Source: Kiloniellales bacterium (lineage in GTDB: Bacteria > Pseudomonadota > Alphaproteobacteria > JBHICX01). Taken from it: DNA of 34,155 bases. The stretch lies in contig JBHICX010000002.1 in the NCBI GenBank assembly GCA_046759805.1, positions 1 to 34,155 on the forward strand, written 5' to 3'. The position numbers and the translations under genes are program-made. The notes below the pieces were generated by a model that saw nothing but the letters and a program-made list of their open reading frames with translations, had not been told where the DNA came from and made no database searches. Shown piece after piece: positions 19,234-29,262 of this stretch (within the stretch, counting starts at the first letter, position 1; every line of letters starts with the position of its first letter).

Positions 19234-20754
19234 ATGACGCCGGGATCGGTCGGTTCGCGCGCCATGACCTGGCTGCCGCTGCCGTTGTTCGGGGCCTGGC
19301 CGTTCCTCGCCTTCCTCAACCACAATCAGGAGGACGCGCTCGACTACGGCGCGTCGGTCCTCGGGCTCGGCGCCGCCTATGTGGTGGTGCTGGCGGTTGC
19401 GGCGCTTGTCGCCGGGCTTCTGTTCCGGCGCAGCGCCCGGGCGCCAGCGGTGAACGCGCTGTGTGTGCTGACGGTGATGTTCTTCACCTATCTGCCGTTC
19501 TCGCGGACGCTCGCGGCCATGGGCGTCTCGCTGGGGACGGTGCGCCTCAGCCTGTGGCTCATATGCGCGCTGGGCCTGGCGGCGCTGGCCTGGCGGCTGT
19601 CGCGCTTCCAACGGGCGTCGTTCGTCGCCGCGCTCATGGGGGCGTTGCTGGTCGCCATGCCGGGGGTGCAACTGGCCTGGTTCGCCGCCGAGGGCGCCAT
19701 GGGGGGCCGGGCCGCTGACGCCGGCCCGCGGGTGGTCGGGGCGCAGGCGGAATCGCCCCCCAACGTGTACTGGTTCGTATTCGACATGTATGCCCGTGCC
19801 GACGTGCTGGAGGCGTATCTGGGCTACGACAACGGCGACTTCCTGGCCGCGCTCGGCCGGCGCGGCTTCTTCGTCGCCGATGAAGCGGTGGCCAACTACA
19901 GCAGTACCAAGCTTTCGCTCAGCACCACGGTCAGCATGGACTACTACCTGCCGGTGGGGCCGAAGCTGCATCCGCGGCTGTGGACCGACCGCCTGCAGGG
20001 CTACAACGCCGTGGTCGAGCGCTTCCATCAGCTGGGCTACCGCTACATCCACGCCGAGCCAGGCGGGGTCAACCGCAAGACCCGCTGCGGCGGCCGCGAG
20101 CAGCAGTGCATCTCCGGGCCGACCCGGGGCGTTCTCGGCATCAGCGAGGCGGAGGCCGGCCTCTTGAAACTGACGCCCTTGTATCCGGTGCTGATCGTCC
20201 TGGCGCCCGGCCTGCTGAGCTTCGATTTCACCGGCCTCGACGACGTGATCGCGGCGGTGCGGCTGGATGCCGAGCGGCCGCACTTCCTGTTCGCGCACAT
20301 CCTCTCGCCGCACCCGCCGGCCCGCTTCGGTCCCGGCTGCCGCCGCCTCACACGAACCGCCTGGGAGCTGGTCACCGAGGATTCCCCGAAGACCCGTACT
20401 GCCTACCTGCACGACCTCGGCTGCCTCAATCGGTTGATCCTGGAGGCGATCGACGAGATCCTGGCGCGGGATCGAAGCGACCCGATCCTGATCCTGCAGG
20501 GGGACCACGGCCTTAAGTTCGGCGCCGCGCCAGCTGGCGCCAGCGGCATGGAGCCGTGGCTGGGGGTGCACGGCATCCTGCATGCCATGCGTCGCCCTGA
20601 ACGCTGCCGCGACGATGCCTCTTCGCGCTTTTCGACGGTGAACACCTTCCGTATCGTGTTCGCCTGCATCGAGGAGACGCCCCTGGACCTGCTTGCCAAT
20701 CGGGTGTTCCGCTACCGCGGCCGCACGCTCACCGAGCTGGTGGCGGATTACTGA
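19234..20754 (+). CDS. membrane-anchored sulfatase-fold (alkaline phosphatase superfamily) hydrolase/transferase, paralog 2
   Basis: 506 aa (alternative Met at 19264). Collinear with 11132..12649: GAWPFLAFLNHNQ / ASWPFVAFLAANK; PPNVYWFVFDMYARAD / MPNVYWFLLDGYVRDD; SSTKLSLSTTVSMDYYL / DNTTFSLASTMGMDYVYL; HILSPHPPARF; ILQGDHGLKF; NTFRIVFACIEE. Confidence 0.75.
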   Translation: MTPGSVGSRAMTWLPLPLFGAWPFLAFLNHNQEDALDYGASVLGLGAAYVVVLAVAALVAGLLFRRSARAPAVNALCVLTVMFFTYLPFSRTLAAMGVSLGTVRLSLWLICALGLAALAWRLSRFQRASFVAALMGALLVAMPGVQLAWFAAEGAMGGRAADAGPRVVGAQAESPPNVYWFVFDMYARADVLEAYLGYDNGDFLAALGRRGFFVADEAVANYSSTKLSLSTTVSMDYYLPVGPKLHPRLWTDRLQGYNAVVERFHQLGYRYIHAEPGGVNRKTRCGGREQQCISGPTRGVLGISEAEAGLLKLTPLYPVLIVLAPGLLSFDFTGLDDVIAAVRLDAERPHFLFAHILSPHPPARFGPGCRRLTRTAWELVTEDSPKTRTAYLHDLGCLNRLILEAIDEILARDRSDPILILQGDHGLKFGAAPAGASGMEPWLGVHGILHAMRRPERCRDDASSRFSTVNTFRIVFACIEETPLDLLANRVFRYRGRTLTELVADY

Positions 20755-20811
20755 GAGATCGCGCCCCGGTTGCCGCCCGGCGGCGGCGCGGGACCTTCGG
20801 GAAACCTTGCC

Positions 20812-21087
20812 ATGACCCAGTCGAAACCGGATCGCCAGCTTTGCCTCATGCTCGCCGCCGCCGTCGGGCTGGTGCCGTCCGATGCCCTGGCCTATATCGA
20901 CATCGGCACCACCGGCATGCTGCTGCAGTTATTGGTGGCCAGCGTCGCCGGGGCGCTGGTGGTGGTGAAGATGACCTGGCGGCGGATGCGCGATGCCACG
21001 GTCCGGATGATCCGTGGCGCCGGCAAGCAAGCCGAGACCGACCCGGGCCACCCTGCGGCGGACCGCAGCCATACCGAACGGCAATAA
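20812..21087 (+). CDS. small membrane/secreted protein of unknown function, paralog A (AY[IL]D.GT.GMLLQLL motif)
   Basis: Start taken at ATG 20812. 91 aa: signal-like LCLMLAAAVGLVPSDALA, then YIDIGTTGMLLQLLVASVAGALVVVKMTWRRMRDATVRMIRG and a polar tail. Coding is supported by amino-acid-level conservation with 25740..25979, including synonymous Leu codon changes. Confidence 0.55.
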   Translation: MTQSKPDRQLCLMLAAAVGLVPSDALAYIDIGTTGMLLQLLVASVAGALVVVKMTWRRMRDATVRMIRGAGKQAETDPGHPAADRSHTERQ

Positions 21088-21092
21088 GGGTT

Positions 21093-21117
21093 TCGCCGCC
21101 GCCTCAGCGGGCGGCGA
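21093..21117. terminator. GC-rich hairpin between convergent genes (possible bidirectional terminator)
   Basis: tcgccgcc (21093-21100) / 9-nt loop / ggcggcga (21110-21117). It lies in the 16-nt gap between the stop of 20812..21087 (+) and the stop of 21104..22279 (-) and runs into the latter's 3' end. There is no clear U-tract. Confidence 0.25.
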
Positions 21118-22279
21118 CGCCGCGCGCGGGCCTTCTGTCGTCGGTGGCCACAGGGCAGAGCCGGCGCAGCGCCCGCGCCGCGATCTGGCGCGCCGCCGGC
21201 CCATCCACCTCGCGGATATTGTTGGCGGCCCGGGCCCGGGTGATGAGCGCGTCGTCCAACCGGTCCGCATGGGCCGGCGTGACATAGCGGGACAGCGCCG
21301 CCCCGAGCCCGAGTTCGTCGAACCAGTCCTCCAGTGATTGCGGCACCGCATCGAGGGCGCAGCCAAGGCCGGCGGCGATCGGCTTGAGCCGCTCCGGGTC
21401 ATCAGCCGCGTTATAGCGCGCGCATTCCGCCAGCGAGAAGCTGCAGGCAAGCCCATGCGGGACCCCGAAGCGGGAGGTAAATTGATAGCTGATCGAGTGG
21501 GCGAGCGCCGTCTGGGTGGTGCCCATGGTGAGCCCCGAGATGAGCGCCGCCGTCTGCATGCGCCGGCGCAGCTCTACGTCGCCGGGCTGGTCGAGCGCGG
21601 CCTTCAGGTTGTTCCGCACGACGCCGATCGCGGTGGTCGCCAGTGCGTCCGTCACCGGCGAGTGATGCCGGTTCCAAACCGATTCGATGGCGTGCGAGAG
21701 GGCGTCCAGACCGCTCGCCAGGGTCAGCTCCGCTGGCATCGATGCGCACAGCGCCGGATCGTGGACGGCATGCCCGGGACGCAGGCGCGGGTCACTGACC
21801 GAGAACTTGATCCCATCGTCGCCCCAGATCGTCCCCCACTGCGTCACCTCCGAGCCGCTGCCCGAGGTCGTGGGCACGGCAATGATCGGCACCGGCTCGA
21901 GATCGTCCGGCAACGGTCGGCCTTCGCGCAGATGCGCCATCAGGGTCGCCACGTCGCCGTTTATGCCGGTGAGCGCCACGATCCCCTTGGCCGCGTCCAT
22001 GACGCTGCCGCCACCCAGCGCCACCACCACCTCCCCCGGCGGAAAGTCCTCGGCCAGGGCGATGACCGCGGAACAGCTCGGATTGGCCTCGACGCCGCCG
22101 ATCCGGACCGCCGGCTCGCCGCAAGCGCCGGCGAGCCGGTCCGGGACATCGCCGTCGGTCCAGAACTGGCTGGTCACCAGGGCCCAGGATCGCCCGCCGA
22201 TCAGTTCGGCCAGGGCCTTGTCGCAATCGGGCCCTTCGACCACCTGGGTCGGGCAGCGAAACGGATGCGTCAGAACCAA
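21104..22279 (-). CDS. iron-containing (group III) alcohol dehydrogenase; candidate phosphonoacetaldehyde reductase
   Basis: 391 aa with a TTG start. VVVALGGGSVMDAAKGIVAL is the Fe-ADH glycine-rich motif. ..AVPTTSGSGSEVT.. and His-rich metal-site region (LDALSHAIES, ALAHSISYQ). The start overlaps the stop of the upstream HEPD/MPnS-like gene by 10 nt. Confidence 0.75.
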   Translation of the reverse strand: MVLTHPFRCPTQVVEGPDCDKALAELIGGRSWALVTSQFWTDGDVPDRLAGACGEPAVRIGGVEANPSCSAVIALAEDFPPGEVVVALGGGSVMDAAKGIVALTGINGDVATLMAHLREGRPLPDDLEPVPIIAVPTTSGSGSEVTQWGTIWGDDGIKFSVSDPRLRPGHAVHDPALCASMPAELTLASGLDALSHAIESVWNRHHSPVTDALATTAIGVVRNNLKAALDQPGDVELRRRMQTAALISGLTMGTTQTALAHSISYQFTSRFGVPHGLACSFSLAECARYNAADDPERLKPIAAGLGCALDAVPQSLEDWFDELGLGAALSRYVTPAHADRLDDALITRARAANNIREVDGPAARQIAARALRRLCPVATDDRRPARGVAAR

Positions 22280-23649
22280 CGTTTCGTCTCCCGGACCACG
22301 CGCCGGCGGGTCTCGGCGGGGTAGAGGGCGAACTCATCGAGCACCGATTGCATGAGGCTCCCCGCCACGCGGACTATGGCCAGATGACCTTCACCCTCGC
22401 CGGTCGGTCGGGCGAAACGGTGGCCTATCATCGGCCGGACATAGGCGGAATCTCCAGGCGCCAGCTCGGTTTGGTGCCGGTCGCCCCAGTTGAGGGCGAC
22501 CGCGGCATCGCCGTAGTTGTAGACGTACTCGTGGAGGCCGTGGCGCAGGACCGCGTCCCCGGTGTCCTCGGCGAGAACCGTCACCTCGAATCCCTTGAGC
22601 CCCGGTTGATGCTTGGTGCGGGCGAGCTCGGTCAGGCGGTAGGCGGCCCGGTTCGAGTCGGGCGGAAAGGCCCGGCTCGGCGACCGCGCCCTGGTGCGCA
22701 CCACCACCTCCTCCTTCGGCGTGAGCTGGCTGACCATCAGGTCGGCGGGTCGCAGATCGAGCGCCGCGGCCAGCGCCGCGACCTCCGCCCCTTGGGGAAG
22801 CCGCGCCCCGGCGGCCAGCGCCGCCGCCGCTTCCTCGTCGAGGCCGGCGTCCACGAGGCGGCGCATGAGCTCGCCCGAGGTCAGGCTTTCCGCCGCCAAG
22901 GCGCGGACGATGCGCGCGGCGAAGGCGCCCTGAGGGTCGCGCAGGTCCCCGGCCAGTCGATCGAGATCCGGTCCCTCCAGGTGGCGCAGGGCGTCGAGCG
23001 CGCCACGCACCTCGCCGGCATAGGTGACGGCGATGATAAGCCCCAGTCGCCGCGGATCGCGGCTGGTGAAGCTGTGACGGACGAACGGGGTGATGTAGTT
23101 CGAATCGCCGGTGTTCATCTCGGCACAGTAGCCGCGCCCATCGATCCGCCAGTAGAAGTTCACCGCGCCGACGAAGAAGGTCAACTGATGCATCAGGTGG
23201 CCGTTGTTGTAGGCCACGTCCGGATTATCCGGGTCCGAATCCTCGACCAGGCGCAGCGGCCGGATCCACTCCGGCTTGAAGGGGGCGAGCCGGCTCATCG
23301 CCGTATCGCGATAGTCGTAGTAGGGCGTCTCGGACCCGGCCCGGTCCTTGCGCTCGAAGACGCGCGACGACGCGTCGGAGTCCGCCCTGCGCATCACCTT
23401 GACACCGTCCTCGGTATCGTCGGCTTCCACCCACAGGTCGGCGAGCGAGATCGGGTAGGCCTCGGCCATCGCGGTGAGCAGCGATCGGGCGGTCGCCTCA
23501 TCGGCCTCACCGGCGATCACCCGACGCACCGTCGCCGGATCCCGGTTCAGCTCCCGCGCCAGCGCCTCGGGGGTGCGTTTGAGGTCGTTGGCCTCGCTGA
23601 GGATGCGGGCGCCCAGCGCCTGAAGGTGTCGGGCCTTTCGGTCTTGCAT
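22270..23649 (-). CDS. HppE/HEPD/MPnS-family non-heme Fe(II) dioxygenase (HTH + double cupin); candidate methylphosphonate synthase
   Basis: Start taken at ATG 23647-23649, overlapping the upstream TGA by 1 nt. 459 aa. XRE-like HTH ARILSEANDLKRTPEALARELNRDPATVRRVIAGE. Cupin 1: VAYNNGH151LMHQ155LTFFVGAVNF165...GDSNYI186TPFVRH192SF. Cupin 2: HEYVYNYGD..LAPGDSAYVRPMIGHRF. Upstream ORF residues 23650..23832 are judged to be a shadow extension. Confidence 0.8.
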   Translation of the reverse strand: MQDRKARHLQALGARILSEANDLKRTPEALARELNRDPATVRRVIAGEADEATARSLLTAMAEAYPISLADLWVEADDTEDGVKVMRRADSDASSRVFERKDRAGSETPYYDYRDTAMSRLAPFKPEWIRPLRLVEDSDPDNPDVAYNNGHLMHQLTFFVGAVNFYWRIDGRGYCAEMNTGDSNYITPFVRHSFTSRDPRRLGLIIAVTYAGEVRGALDALRHLEGPDLDRLAGDLRDPQGAFAARIVRALAAESLTSGELMRRLVDAGLDEEAAAALAAGARLPQGAEVAALAAALDLRPADLMVSQLTPKEEVVVRTRARSPSRAFPPDSNRAAYRLTELARTKHQPGLKGFEVTVLAEDTGDAVLRHGLHEYVYNYGDAAVALNWGDRHQTELAPGDSAYVRPMIGHRFARPTGEGEGHLAIVRVAGSLMQSVLDEFALYPAETRRRVVRETKRWF

Positions 23650-24452
23650 CACGTCACCCCGGCGGCTTCGACGATGGTGAACAGGCGTTGGCGGGCGGAG
23701 ATCGAGGCGAGCCTTTGGTAGTCCTGCGGCGTATCGAGTTCGGCCCAGCCCCGCTCGACCAGCGCGCAGTCGACCCGGATTCCCCGATTCACGAGCTCCT
23801 GGATCATATCCGTGATGTAGGCCTGGCGCCATTCCGTCGCCTCATGGAACGGCGCCAGCGGGTCGAGGCGTCGCGCCAATTCCTCGAACACGTTCCGGAA
23901 GGCGGCCGCGCCGGCGGCGCTCATTCGCCACAGGCCCAGGAATTCGCCACAGTTGTAGGAGGCCGCGTCGGCGGGATCAAGATGCTTGCCGGCCTTGAGG
24001 ACCGCGCCGTCGGCGGAAAGGAACACGTTCTCCGCCTCCTCGACCGGGTGGTCGGTGCGGCCCTCGTAATAGGCCCGCCAGTCGGTGTCGACGGCCAGCA
24101 CGATATCGCCGGGGGTCTCGACGAGCCGGCGGTAGATCGTCGGCTCGACCCAGATGTCGGAGTAGGTGGCGATGACCGGCCCGGCCAGATGATCGCGGGC
24201 GCACATGAACGAGTGCAGGATGTTGTTGTCGAGATAGTCCTGGTTCTCGACGCGAACGATCTCGCCCTGGTCGATGCGGTGACCGAGATAGCCGGTGACC
24301 ACCACCACCGTCCCGCAGCCGACATGGCGCAGGCGCTCGATCGTGTGCTCGATGAGCGGCCGTCCGGCCACCGGAAGCAGGCACTTGGGAATGTCCTTCG
24401 CGACGGCGTCCATCCGGGCGCCGCGCCCGGCCGCGATCACGATGCCCTTCAT
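23649..24452 (-). CDS. LicC/PntC-like nucleotidyltransferase (probable cytidylyltransferase for a phospho(no)-alcohol/phosphonate)
   Basis: Start taken at ATG 24450-24452, preceded by GAGGTGAG. 267 aa. MKGIVIAAGRGARMDAVAKDIPKCLLPVAGRPLIEHTIERL..VVVVTGYLGHRI is the NTP_transferase (GXGTRL...PK) signature, most like LicC-type enzymes. Confidence 0.8.
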   Translation of the reverse strand: MKGIVIAAGRGARMDAVAKDIPKCLLPVAGRPLIEHTIERLRHVGCGTVVVVTGYLGHRIDQGEIVRVENQDYLDNNILHSFMCARDHLAGPVIATYSDIWVEPTIYRRLVETPGDIVLAVDTDWRAYYEGRTDHPVEEAENVFLSADGAVLKAGKHLDPADAASYNCGEFLGLWRMSAAGAAAFRNVFEELARRLDPLAPFHEATEWRQAYITDMIQELVNRGIRVDCALVERGWAELDTPQDYQRLASISARQRLFTIVEAAGVT

Positions 24453-24468
24453 GCGCCGCTCACCTCGA

Positions 24469-25653
24469 TCATTCGGCGCAAACGCCCGAGCGGCTCCGTG
24501 CGAGTTCGGCGATTGCGTCGGCGCCGCGAATGCCGCTCGTTCCAAGGTTGTAGATCCAAGTCTCCCGCATCCGGCGCGCCCGAGCGGCGAAGGAATCCGC
24601 GGTGTCCCACAGGGATTGTATCATCGCCGGCGCTTCGGACAATCGGTCCGGCGCCAGGACGGCCCCGATCTCCTCGCGGATGGCGACCTCCAGCGGCACC
24701 GCGCCCAGCCGCGTATATTCGGGATTGTTCACCTTGCGCGGCACGTCGACGAACAGCACCGGCCGTTCGAGCCCGAAGGCGAACTCCATCGCCACGCCGG
24801 ACCAATCGCTGATCATCAGGTGCGACCGGATGAGCGGGCCGAAGGAGGTGGTGTCCTCGTCGAGGGCGAAACCGGGACGCTCCTGGAAGCGCCCGTGAAG
24901 ATCGTCCAGAACACGCGGCGTGCGCCGGCGGGTCTGCGGATGCGGACGCACGCTCACCTGGTGCCCAGCGGCAAGCAGGATCTCCACCAGTTCCGCGCCG
25001 CAGGTCTCCAACAGCCCGTTCGCACCCCAGGACGGCGCCACCAGGACGCGCACCCCCTGGTCCGCGGGGGCCGGGCCGGGGTGTGCAGTGGCCGCGTCCA
25101 GGAGCGCGTCCAGGGGACCGTAGCCGTGGCGGAACAACCGCTTGGCCGGCAGGCCGTTGAGCCGCTCCCACTCCCGGGTCTCGGCCTCGTGATGGGGGCC
25201 GACGCACAGCACCGAATCGAAATGGTCGAAGGCGCCGCGGCGATAGATCATATGGGTGCTGACCATGGAATGGTGCAGGTAGACGTAATGCACCGGATGC
25301 AGCGAGCGCAGGAGGTGAAGGCTGTGCAGGTCGGGCATGGTCATCACCATGACGCCCGCCTCGATCGACCGAAACAGGTAGGTCTGCGCGGCCCCGTCGC
25401 CGATATAGAAGGCGAGGATGCGCGGGTCGTTGCCTCGAAGCAACGGATCCCGCGGGTCGGAGGTGAGGTAGCAGAGGGACTGGCCGTGCCGCCGGGTGAG
25501 CGCATCGACCACCGGCTTGAAGAACACCCAGTAGGCGGCGCCCTCGGAGTAGAACACCACCCGCCGCGCCTCGGGATCGAGCCTCTGCACCCGCCGGACG
25601 TCGCGCCAGGAACGCAAGACTTGCAACAGACCGCTCATCAAAGGCCGTTCCAT
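24469..25653 (-). CDS. TagB/TagF-like CDP-alcohol phosphotransferase family protein (Glyphos_transf-like)
   Basis: 394 aa (alternative Met at 25638). VLVAPSWG.., VRPHPQT.., SHLMISDWSGVAMEFAFGLERPVLFVD resemble the TagF catalytic-domain pattern (..P.W.., HP.., L[IM]xDYSS..xDF..l.kP.iF). Composition is normal, unlike the two overlapping Arg/Pro/Gly-rich alternative-frame ORFs. Confidence 0.65.
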   Translation of the reverse strand: MERPLMSGLLQVLRSWRDVRRVQRLDPEARRVVFYSEGAAYWVFFKPVVDALTRRHGQSLCYLTSDPRDPLLRGNDPRILAFYIGDGAAQTYLFRSIEAGVMVMTMPDLHSLHLLRSLHPVHYVYLHHSMVSTHMIYRRGAFDHFDSVLCVGPHHEAETREWERLNGLPAKRLFRHGYGPLDALLDAATAHPGPAPADQGVRVLVAPSWGANGLLETCGAELVEILLAAGHQVSVRPHPQTRRRTPRVLDDLHGRFQERPGFALDEDTTSFGPLIRSHLMISDWSGVAMEFAFGLERPVLFVDVPRKVNNPEYTRLGAVPLEVAIREEIGAVLAPDRLSEAPAMIQSLWDTADSFAARARRMRETWIYNLGTSGIRGADAIAELARSRSGVCAE

Positions 25654-25739
25654 CGAAGCGCGGGCGGCCGAGACTGGGTAAGTTTCGCCGTCCGGTCAAG
25701 CGATGCCGGTTCGACCGGATCCGGACGGAGCCATTCGCC
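25654..25739. promoter_or_regulatory. divergent intergenic region between the minus-strand phosphonate cassette and the resumed plus-strand genes; contains nested inverted repeats
   Basis: This 86-bp gap is the only sizeable divergent gap in the window. ccgtccgg (25688-25695) pairs with ccggacgg (25721-25728). Inside it lies the palindrome ccggt-tcg-accgg (25706-25718). No convincing sigma-70 hexamers were identified by eye. Confidence 0.3.
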
Positions 25740-25979
25740 ATGAACCATTCGTTCCGCCTCCTCGTCACAATGGCGTTCGTGGCCGGGCTCATGCCGTCCG
25801 AGGCGTGGGCCTATCTCGACCCCGGCACCGGCGGCATGCTGTTGCAGCTCTTGCTCGGCGGCGTCGCCGGCGCACTGGTGGTGATCAAGCTCTACTGGAG
25901 TCGCCTGCGCGAGGTGACGGCGCGCATCATGCGCGGCCACCAGGATAAGCCAGAGGACGGCCGCGCCGAGCCCGATTGA
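25740..25979 (+). CDS. small membrane/secreted protein of unknown function, paralog B (AY[IL]D.GT.GMLLQLL motif)
   Basis: 79 aa: MNHSFRLLVTMAFVAGLMPSEAWA-YLDPGTGGMLLQLLLGGVAGALVVIKLYWSRLREVTARIMRG.. Collinear with 20812..21087 at both protein and DNA level. Confidence 0.6.
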   Translation: MNHSFRLLVTMAFVAGLMPSEAWAYLDPGTGGMLLQLLLGGVAGALVVIKLYWSRLREVTARIMRGHQDKPEDGRAEPD

Positions 25980-27414
25980 CGGCGCCCGCGACAACCGAAC
26001 AGCCGGCGATGCAGGCCCAGTTGGATCCCGGCTCGTTCAAGGACCCCGAGGGGCGCGTGATCGTGCATCGGGGCGAGGTCTACCGCACCTTGACCGAGGA
26101 CGCGGCCCGGCGCATGCGCGCCAGCCGCGAGACCTTGGAGGCGCTCTGCCGCGACGGCCGGCTGATCGCCACCCGGCTCGTCTCCCGCGACGAGGCCGGG
26201 TTGCCGGCGGGGGTGGGCGGCGAGACCCTGTTGCACCACGAACGGGTGCCGGTCATCACCTATCCGTTCGAATGGTCCTTCGACATGCTTCGCGAGGCGG
26301 CGCTGTGCACGCTCGAGGTGCTGGAGACCTGCCTCGAGCGCGGCCTCATCCTTAAGGACGCCTCGGCCTACAACGTCGCCTTCCACCGCGGGCGCATGGT
26401 GTTCATCGACACCCTGTCGATCGACGCTTACGCCGAGGGCGAGCCCTGGGACGGCTATGCCCAGTTCTGCCGCGAGTTCCTGTTCCCGCTGATGCTGACC
26501 GCCTATCGCGGGGTCGAGTTCCAGCCCTGGTTCCGCGGCCGGCTCAACGGCCTGGCGCTGGCCGACCTGGCGCGTCTCCTCACCTGGCGCGACCTGTTGC
26601 GCAAGGGGGTGCTGCGCCATGTGGTCCTGCAGCGCCGGCTGGAGCGCTGGTTCGCCGGCGCCGACATGGAGATTCGCGGCCGGTTTCGCGACATCCGGTT
26701 CTCCAAAGGGATGATCCTGGCGAACCTGCGCGGCCTGCGAAAGGTTGTCGCATCGCTCGCTTACCGGGCGGCGGAGTCGCACTGGCTCGACTATACGGAA
26801 AAGAGCTCGTATTCCGATGAGGAACGGGCCCAGAAGGCGGACTTCGTCGGGCGAGCCTTGGATCGCCTCGCGCCGGCCCAGGTCGTCGACCTGGGCTGCA
26901 ACATCGGCGACCACGCGCTTATCGCCGCCGGGCGGGCGGCGCAAGTGGTCGCCGCCGACTTGGACCCGGCTTGCGTCAACACCCTCTACCGCCGCCTGGG
27001 CGCGGATGACGTGCGCAACGTGACGCCGATGGTCGCCGACCTTCTCAACCCCTCGCCGGGCCTGGGCTGGGACTTGCGCGAACGCAGCCCCTTGTTCGAC
27101 CGCATCCGCTCCGACGCCTTCCTGGCGCTGGCGCTGGTCCACCACGTGGCGATCGACGGCAACGTGCCGCTGGCCGCGTTCCTGGACCGGCTCAGTGACA
27201 TCGCCCCGGCGGGCGTCGTCGAATGGGTCGACAAGCAGGACGGCATGGTCCGCCGCATGCTGAGAAACCGCACCGACGTGTTCCCCGACTATGACTGGGC
27301 GCACTTCGAGCGCCTGCTGCGCGAGCGCTTTACCCTGGCCGAGGTAGCCGAAAGCCACCAGGGCCAGCGCAAGCTCTGCCTGGTGTTGCCGCGGGACAGG
27401 GAGCCCCCGAGCCC

Positions 27415-27418
<4 letters not shown>
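25976..27418 (+). CDS. fusion protein: N-terminal protein-kinase-like/choline-kinase-like domain + C-terminal class I SAM-dependent methyltransferase
   Basis: 480 aa from TTG 25976 (overlaps the upstream TGA; alternative ATG at 26009). N-domain: GLILKDASAYNVAF and MVFIDTLS resemble the catalytic-loop D-x4-N and the metal-binding Asp of APH/choline-kinase folds. C-domain: VVDLGCNIGDHAL (SAM motif I) and VVAADLD. Confidence 0.6.

Positions 27419-29258
<1,840 letters not shown>

Positions 29259-29262
<4 letters not shown>

Follow-up and report, generated by a model that had tools for sequence, protein, structure and literature searches.

One source of the methane in oxic waters is thought to be the methylphosphonate esters carried by microbial surface polymers, and the attachment of the phosphonate and the spread of its genes are poorly known. 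In the methylphosphonate cluster of Nitrosopumilus maritimus, mpnS lies together with pdh, a nucleotidyltransferase gene and sulfatase-like genes. The TagF/TagB CDP-glycerol glycerophosphotransferases act at the cytoplasmic face of the membrane, and WbdD, the chain terminator of an O-antigen pathway, needs membrane attachment to work. We analyzed a stretch of 34,155 nucleotides from a Kiloniellales bacterium of a hydrothermal-vent metagenome (assembly GCA_046759805.1, contig JBHICX010000002.1, positions 1 to 34,155; hereafter the window), which carries an mpnS cassette on the minus strand. The cassette is flanked by two small plus-strand genes, A (20812..21087) and B (25740..25979), which had been picked out as open reading frames (ORFs) by a sequence-only reading of the window and were found at these positions.

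A and B are real, diverged copies of one family of membrane proteins. Gene A starts with ATG and encodes 91 residues (105 if an alternative TTG start at 20770 is used); it is the alpha type, a divergent paralog within what we call the YLDPGTGS membrane-module family. Gene B encodes 79 residues and is the beta, canonical type. Its stop overlaps a possible TTG start of the next gene, MT480; otherwise 29 nt lie between them. BLASTP aligned the two proteins with 36/73 identical residues (49%, E 2e-16), which bears out the paralogy proposed earlier. The DNA similarity, placed by the earlier reading at 20872-21020 versus 25791-25940, was recovered close by as a plus-strand direct repeat of 154 nt with 75% identity and a spacing of 4919 nt, of which the left copy (20865..21018) is the core of gene A and the right copy (25784..25937) is the core of gene B. 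The family profile scored A at 95.8 bits and B at 115 bits, and these were its sole matches in the 2.69-Mb assembly (82% complete). Both genes carry the coding signature of the genome, with a GC content of 0.85 (A) and 0.89 (B) at third codon positions (GC3) and of 0.49 (A) and 0.45 (B) at second positions (GC2).

We lean, with moderate confidence, towards a model in which the small proteins form an anchor or adaptor family, the cassette was joined to the locus by recombination within the small gene, B serves MT480, and A is a maintained paralog. The small protein would be a detachable anchor or adaptor that keeps at the membrane those enzymes by which surface glycans receive phosphoryl- or phosphonyl-type substituents, a role suggested by gene context and one fusion protein. 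The ancestral operon would have run from a sulfatase-fold protein through the small gene and MT480 to an ATP-binding cassette (ABC) exporter. A 4.9-kb unit of pdh, mpnS, a nucleoside triphosphate (NTP) transferase gene and a TagF-like gene would then have entered it through homologous recombination at the YID/PGT codons of the small gene, and this integration would have left one small-gene copy on each side of the cassette. B would be the canonical copy that serves MT480, and the client of A would be the TagF-like transferase of the cassette or, alternatively, the upstream sulfatase-fold protein.

The small proteins belong to a widespread and undescribed family of inner-membrane proteins of about 65-110 residues (typically ~80). 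A search with B returned 252 close matches, all of 63-131 aa, and an exhaustive search returned 4,824 cluster representatives (50% identity clusters) at E<=1e-3. The small ORFs might have had no relatives elsewhere, as the sequence-only reading had allowed; instead, hundreds of homologs were found in several phyla. No Pfam domain was detected in the family members, A and B had no match in Pfam or NCBIfam, and a literature search by the motif strings of the family returned nothing relevant. The layout consists of a signal-like N-terminal helix, the motif A-x-A-Y-[LI]-D-P-G-T-G-S, a conserved transmembrane (TM) helix (LLQLLLGGVAG) and a basic tail (KLYWxR...). In the family alignment, the two A-x-A columns are conserved at 96% and 99%, Y at 100%, D at 99%, P at 97% and, after G and T, the last G at 95%; in the TM helix, Q is conserved at 100% and GG.AG at 96-97%, followed by K-L-Y-W at 84-97%. 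Stand-alone members have 45-67 residues after the motif, without exception. The signal-like helix ends in A-x-A in both window proteins (...LVPSDALA in A and ...LMPSEAWA in B). In the Y-[LIV]-D-P-G-[TS]-G motif, B reads the canonical YLDPGTG, and A reads YIDIGTT, which keeps Y, D, G and T and replaces P and G. The TM and juxtamembrane region is likewise canonical in B and reads LLQLLVASVAG...KMTWRR in A.

The AlphaFold2 model of B contained helices at residues 3-17, 30-51 (the TM helix, pLDDT about 90) and 53-66, the packing of which is not confident (pTM 0.40). Two topologies fit, a single-pass N-out/C-in protein with a cleaved signal peptide and an N-in/C-in hairpin. Either way, the C-terminal helix would be cytoplasmic; the conserved motif is predicted to form a turn on the outer face. 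Two single cases may be recorded here. One family member of 161 aa (P0240) is matched in two stretches, as if the module had been duplicated in tandem inside one protein. A solitary family member at L047 7001-7243 has four transposase genes as neighbours, and genes for MT480, sulfatase-fold or TagF-like proteins are absent for 7 kb around it.

GTDB contained no genome closer than the same class. The partners of the small gene were counted in a sample of 401 genomes of that class, 28 of which carry the module. Two copies in one locus were seen in the present genome only. An MT480 homolog starts directly after the small gene in 23/28 of these foreign loci, and MT480 is also directly downstream in most metagenomic loci, which come from several phyla (L001, L003, L004, L021-L030, L034, L049). 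The position upstream of MT480 is held by B, but not by A, which is followed by a convergent iron-dependent alcohol dehydrogenase (Fe-ADH) gene. Membrane proteins of the LtaS-like sulfatase fold are often encoded next to the small gene, in varying order. Five modules are not beside MT480, and four of the five are in genomes with a homolog of the TagF-like gene of the cassette. The TagF-like family itself occurs in 6/401 class genomes, and the module is present in 5/6 of these versus 23/395 of the others (Fisher p 7e-6). The module lies 1.5-4.3 kb from the TagF-like gene in four genomes (G354, G186, G388, G529), and in a further genome (G130) it forms the N-terminal part of the TagF-like enzyme itself. 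This fusion protein has 432 aa, matches PF04464 with 48.8 bits and shares 29% identity over 354 residues with the TagF-like protein of the window (E 1e-57).

Thus the proposal of the sequence-only reading that A and B are small membrane partners of neighbouring enzymes is supported by the comparative context, namely the MT480 linkage, the sulfatase-fold neighbours and the G130 fusion. The same reading had also mentioned a similar N-terminal motif on proteins of the alkaline-phosphatase superfamily, and this was not found: when a concatenated query of the sulfatase-fold protein and B was searched against 5.8 billion proteins for long module-bearing fusions and scored on its B part, none of 518 candidates reached E<=1e-3. 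The G130 fusion was missed by this search because it is too divergent for that threshold. As a separate observation, pyruvate-kinase-like, ATP-sulfurylase-like or PPDK-like genes recur beside the small gene (L001 1-5385; L079 355-2857; L084 10341-13388), and some of them overlap it, which hints at a phosphotransfer step shared by these loci.

A wider generalization can be formulated from these neighbourhoods, although we hold it only tentatively and expect that it may well fail. The YLDPGTGS module, in most cases a protein of its own (~80 aa) and occasionally part of a fusion, would be a general detachable anchor that recruits soluble MT480, TagF-like and pyruvate-kinase/PPDK-like enzymes to LtaS-like transferases and ABC exporters for the decoration of surface glycans, and the anchor gene, because its core DNA is so conserved, would act as a homologous landing pad through which decoration cassettes with their own anchor copy, such as the 4.9-kb methylphosphonate unit, enter and leave glycan operons.

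The same neighbourhoods could also be read without an anchor, the processed outer-face end (YLDPGTGS) being a substrate, primer or regulatory subunit for a periplasmic sulfatase-fold (LtaS-like) enzyme and the two copies being two acceptors or regulators. Conservation within the family peaks at the outer-face motif, which is intact even in the fusion protein, the TM helix of which has diverged; the A-x-A before the motif is like a signal-peptidase site; and some of the frequently neighbouring sulfatase-fold genes overlap the small gene (G388). However, the most constant neighbour is the soluble MT480 and not the sulfatase-fold protein, the loci L015-L019 have no sulfatase homolog within 8 kb, and an anchor is compatible with the N-terminal fusion of the module to a TagF-like enzyme of the nucleotide-sugar type. 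To our knowledge, no modification chemistry has been described for a YLDPGTGS-type motif. We therefore consider a role as substrate or regulator unlikely and retain the anchor or adaptor as the preferred role.

The two copies differ in their degree of conservation. B has the consensus residue at all 24 columns that are conserved at >=80%, and the ratio of nonsynonymous to synonymous substitution rates (dN/dS) of its core is 0.07-0.15 versus orthologs, which argues against a non-coding repeat. B is canonical, coupled to MT480 and under constraint. Over the 34 columns of the core, 9 changes are A-specific and 0 are B-specific (p 0.004). In A, I31, T34, S44 and T55 replace residues that are >=95% conserved among 262 family members (P→I, G→T, G→S and Y→T, respectively). 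The pairwise dN/dS of A and B is 0.75. The synonymous Leu codons between A and B had been taken as a sign that both are under selection. This argument was only partly right, since purifying selection does not show in the A-B pair and becomes visible only in comparisons of A or B with the respective ortholog.

A comparison for A came from run X4 of the same study, in which a 706-nt contig of a relative covers the end of the sulfatase-fold gene and all of A. The relative is about 88% identical over A versus about 76% over the adjacent sulfatase end. Its A-type gene is full-length and keeps I31, T34, A43, M54 and T55, with S44→G as a change, and codons 17-69 differ from A by 5 synonymous and 3 conservative non-synonymous codon changes. 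When A was compared with the small gene of another relative, L006, dN/dS was 0.26 for the signal part and 0.39 for the core. Since the X4 relative keeps the odd residues of A, A is probably functional, and these alignments point to a maintained, specialised paralog and not to debris. Its retention goes with the cassette, because cassette-less loci manage with one canonical copy. TagF-like-linked modules elsewhere also lack GG and LYW, the positions at which A has changed. Because cassette-less loci use the single canonical copy for the sulfatase-fold protein and MT480, and because TagF-like-linked modules share the loss of GG and LYW, we favour with modest confidence the TagF-like transferase as the client of A.

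That A might instead be a functionless leftover of the insertion, drifting to a pseudogene while only B works, has some appeal: all core replacements are on the A side, four of them at positions conserved at >=95%; the A-B dN/dS is high; open frames are cheap in a genome of 68% GC; and one copy suffices in cassette-less relatives. Such drift would hardly be expected to leave the full-length A-type gene of X4 with its unusual residues retained, with 5 synonymous versus 3 conservative changes, and with a higher identity over A than over the sulfatase end. The dN/dS values versus L006, the GC3 of A, which is typical of coding sequence in this genome, and the location of its changes at GG and LYW, which vary in TagF-like-linked modules as well, also speak for maintenance. 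It is improbable, in our judgement, that A is an orphan of this kind.

The history of the locus was examined in relatives. In L034, the P0010 contig and L001, the flanking gene order is shared, and one small gene lies between the sulfatase-fold gene and MT480 without a cassette. Single-copy, cassette-less syntenic loci, which the earlier reading had suggested looking for, therefore exist, and they indicate that the cassette is an insertion. The order NTP-transferase–MPnS–ADH occurs elsewhere without the small gene. No integrase, transposase or recombinase domain was found in the main ORFs of the window by Pfam, nor were a tRNA or terminal inverted repeats flanking the block detected. A mobile genetic element (insertion sequence, transposon or integrative element) was accordingly rejected for want of an integrase or transposase, terminal inverted repeats and a tRNA/att target. 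The GC3 of the cassette equals that of its flanks, and a recent foreign origin was rejected on base composition.

Recombination through the small gene is recorded in L006, a 599-bp contig of a relative that contains the C-terminus of the sulfatase-fold protein, one hybrid small gene and the start of MT480. The hybrid gene is A-like 5' of codon 30 and B/L004-like 3' of it, and A-like and B-like informative sites number 15 and 8 to the left of the switch but 1 and 50 to the right of it (Fisher p 3.8e-9). The breakpoint corresponds to 20896..20902 (plus strand) of the window, at the codons Y-I-D/P-G-T. Its signal part is 81.5% identical to A, and its core and tail are 92-93% identical to L004 and 80-87% identical to B. 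The hybrid gene shows that this lineage has undergone crossing-over within the conserved core of the small gene. L006 comes from a different, diverged organism, with 71-81% nucleotide identity to the window. It may be the unsplit ancestral allele, the window then representing a Campbell-type integration of a 4.9-kb unit with its own small gene, or it may have arisen later through an A×B deletion. Over the available 165 nt, L006 lies closer to L004 than to the window, a slight hint in favour of deletion. Integration is the presumed direction of the event in the window, with excision as the alternative. In two further loci, L004 and L005, a full B-type gene is followed by MT480, with 84% nucleotide identity to the window from 25731 on, and the upstream genes are unrelated.

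Two observations concern the right-hand end of the cassette. In runs X2 and X4, contigs of relatives match the TagF-like gene with about 87% identity and part from the window sequence just beyond the start codon region of that gene (25657-25661), and the right-hand junction (25654-25739) may differ between strains. Just 5' of the ribosome-binding region of B, a nested inverted repeat was noticed at 25691-25731 (CCGTCCGG ... CCGGT-TCG-ACCGG ... CCGGACGG), and the homology to L004 starts exactly at its end, 25731.

The sequence-only reading had further suggested that the direct repeats mark how the cassette was inserted and could mediate its deletion, giving on/off variation. The first part agrees with the cassette-less loci and the L006 hybrid; the second found no support. 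An active switch, in which RecA-mediated crossing-over excises the cassette and makes the methylphosphonate decoration phase-variable, would make use of the direct orientation of A and B around the cassette, and the A5′/B3′ hybrid of L006 has the exact structure expected from such an excision. However, the longest exact match between A and B is 10 bp, and this match and the 75% overall identity are well below the usual need of RecA-dependent recombination. No A/B deletion joint was found in the assembled Logan contigs of the source run and three sister runs, in which rare variants would be missed, and contigs of the source run span both cassette junctions intact. L006, moreover, belongs to a different, diverged organism. 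Present-day phase variation is thus unsupported, and we regard it as very improbable. Finally, although the window holds many spurious long ORFs, the idea that the A/B similarity is a non-coding repeat or reflects chance ORFs in GC-rich DNA is refuted by the hundreds of homologs across phyla with conserved length and motif, the B core dN/dS of about 0.1, the conserved gene position and the lack of any Rfam or tRNA match.

Several points weigh against the anchor and recombination model set out above. The closest MT480 relatives, L032 and L033 (70% identity), have the arrangement sulfatase→MT480 with no small gene in 21 kb, MT480 starting about 30 bp after the sulfatase-fold gene (L032 8442-11437, L033 8425-11437); the module can therefore be lost or encoded elsewhere. 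The module is also missing from the 21-kb locus L044, which encodes the closest homolog of the TagF-like protein (49% identity). Within the window, A is 3.4 kb from the TagF-like gene and on the opposite strand, and the copy beside the TagF-like gene is B. A physical link of the small protein to any client is drawn from gene context and the one fusion, and the extreme conservation of the short outer-face motif exceeds the needs of a passive anchor. Since L004 has a B-type gene with unrelated upstream genes, integration in one step would require at least one further rearrangement. The X4 relative, in addition, was rebuilt from difference lists of one low-depth contig.

The block between A and B consists of four tightly packed minus-strand genes, pdh–mpnS–NTP-transferase–TagF-like, inverted relative to A and B. 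The last gene of the cassette, pdh (21104..22279), is convergent with A across a 16-bp gap and encodes a phosphonoacetaldehyde-reductase-like Fe-ADH, which matches the Pfam Fe-ADH family and scores 274 bits against TIGR03405 (Phn_Fe-ADH), below the 423.7-bit cut-off. An Fe-ADH gene also follows MPnS homologs in L035-L037, L042 and L044. The methylphosphonate synthase (MPnS) homolog is encoded at 22270..23649, and its best PDB match is the N. maritimus enzyme (6b9s, E 1.2e-81). MPnS is told from HEPD by the 2-His-1-Gln iron ligands together with the Phe and Ile residues that fix the Gln (PMC11978286). In the alignment to 6b9s, the window protein has the H/Q/H ligands, the Phe (VNFYW) and the Ile (NYITPF) as well as GHLMHQ and RHS, and thus carries the full residue signature of MPnS and not that of HEPD. 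The LicC/PntC-like nucleotidyltransferase (23649..24452; Pfam NTP_transf_3, 4.5e-17; start set at M32 of a long ORF) is the presumed activator of the phosphonate, and its gene is also directly upstream of MPnS homologs in L035, L036, L039, L041 and L044.

The first gene of the cassette encodes the TagF-like transferase (GPT394; 24469..25653) and diverges from B across an 86-bp gap. Its match to Pfam Glyphos_transf (PF04464) is weak (15.4 bits versus a cut-off of 22.1), and two homologs exceed the cut-off, L065 with 48.8 bits (29% identity, E 1e-57) and G529 with 32.3 bits. Its N-terminus (25560-25653, minus strand; first ~30 residues, LLQVLRSWRDVRRV) resembles the juxtamembrane KLYWxRLK helix of the small-protein family, and the homologs L074 and L044 have LKYWNQYRKF in the N-terminal region. 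Judging from this resemblance, TagF-like enzymes may once have carried the module and retained only an interfacial helix.

The cassette interrupts a long plus-strand glycan locus, which encodes aminotransferases, NeuB, two CMP-sugar synthetases, two PhyH dioxygenases, a PMT-like glycosyltransferase and two membrane-anchored sulfatase-fold proteins and, further along, a P-loop protein, MT480, the ABC exporter, another methyltransferase and a GSDH-like protein. The second sulfatase-fold copy (LtaS/EptA-like; 19234..20754, plus strand; Pfam Sulfatase weak, E 2e-4) is the ancestral upstream neighbour of the small gene, and its homologs occupy the same position in L001, L003, L032-L034, L050 and the P0010 contig. 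The exporter (27415..29262, plus strand) is a HepA/MsbA-like fusion of a transmembrane domain and a nucleotide-binding domain (NCBIfam HepA_fam_ABC 289 bits, below cut-off) and is syntenic in L032-L034 and the P0010 contig. Phosphoenolpyruvate (PEP) mutase and phosphonopyruvate decarboxylase were absent from the 34-kb window, and no canonical one was found in the 82%-complete assembly; the only two PF13714 matches of the assembly (contigs C102 and C51; L045, L046) have EDQxxPKRCGH, which is methylisocitrate-lyase-like, and not the Ppm motif EDKxxxxxNS. A scan for terminators and promoters found no terminator and one promoter-like site only, inside the cassette.

MT480 (25976..27418, plus strand), the conserved downstream partner of the small gene, is a protein of ~470 aa with an N-terminal domain and a class I S-adenosylmethionine (SAM) methyltransferase domain. 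Its AlphaFold2 model reached a pLDDT of 91, and the best PDB profile match of the methyltransferase domain was WbdD (E 1e-4; Foldseek E 1e-7). The N-terminal 280 residues (25976-26850) had no Pfam or PDB sequence match, a Pfam search of 34 family members was also empty, and Foldseek matched the model solely through the methyltransferase domain. The N-terminal domain has invariant residues K116-D117, N122 and D134 in a beta-rich region. These K-D...N...D residues suggest that it could be kinase-like, and since Foldseek and Pfam are silent on this domain, we go no further than that suggestion. A metagenome scan with MT480 returned homologs of 30-41% identity only, and the most closely related sequences came from the protein collection (L004-L006, L032-L034).

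The present locus adds a very large, unnamed family of small proteins whose partners are defined, a Rosetta-stone fusion that links it to a TagF-like enzyme, and a mosaic allele showing recombination through the gene. It shows an mpnS module placed as a unit into a conserved glycan-modification operon, and it draws attention to a small membrane protein that occurs alongside the transferases involved and is very widespread, with thousands of clusters in several phyla. If the small protein is indeed an anchor or adaptor, it would be a missing component for reconstituting these pathways. If its gene is a site of cassette exchange, this would explain how decorations move between related bacteria without mobile-element genes.

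With regard to described systems, the cassette resembles the N. maritimus methylphosphonate cluster in its enzyme set, which comprises an Fe-ADH, a nucleotidyltransferase and an MPnS bearing the Gln/Phe/Ile signature, and in the proximity of sulfatase-fold genes. L035, L036 and L044 share the gene order NTP-transferase–MPnS–ADH, and in the archaeal locus L039 an ADH-like gene lies on the other side. The window differs from that cluster in lacking a PEP mutase or phosphonopyruvate decarboxylase, and its cassette is bracketed by small-gene paralogs, whereas other mpnS loci have no small gene within 10 kb. In sorting signals of the PEP-CTERM/exosortase type, a short conserved motif is likewise followed by a TM helix and a basic cluster. 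However, the present family has no P-E-P, its module is stand-alone or N-terminal and not C-terminal on a cargo protein, and its TM helix is conserved in sequence. A PEP-CTERM sorting signal was rejected on the first two of these grounds; the Pfam scans of the main ORFs of the window detected no exosortase-like domain, and the genome was not searched for an exosortase.

Like tagF beside tagD, the first gene of the cassette and its homologs, which match PF04464, adjoin cytidylyl- or nucleotidyltransferase genes. The window protein differs from TagF/TagB in scoring below the Pfam cut-off, and its donor would be a nucleotide-activated phosphonate. We know of no description of a separate or fused YLDPGTGS membrane module for TagF. 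MT480 resembles WbdD (PDB 4azs, 4azw), a kinase/methyltransferase that terminates chains in the ABC-transporter pathway of the E. coli O9a O-antigen, in its methyltransferase domain, to which the match is limited, and in adjoining an ABC exporter in a glycan locus. WbdD has its own membrane-binding region and not a separate small protein. The arrangement as a whole resembles the gene duplications or orphaned gene ends that insertion by homologous recombination leaves behind, such as Campbell-type integration scars and the displaced ends at Rhs/CDI loci. An added block of about 5 kb lies between imperfect direct repeats of a resident gene, integrase, transposase, tRNA and terminal inverted repeats are absent, and a relative carries a hybrid allele. 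It differs from such scars in that both copies in the window are complete and both are apparently kept by selection.

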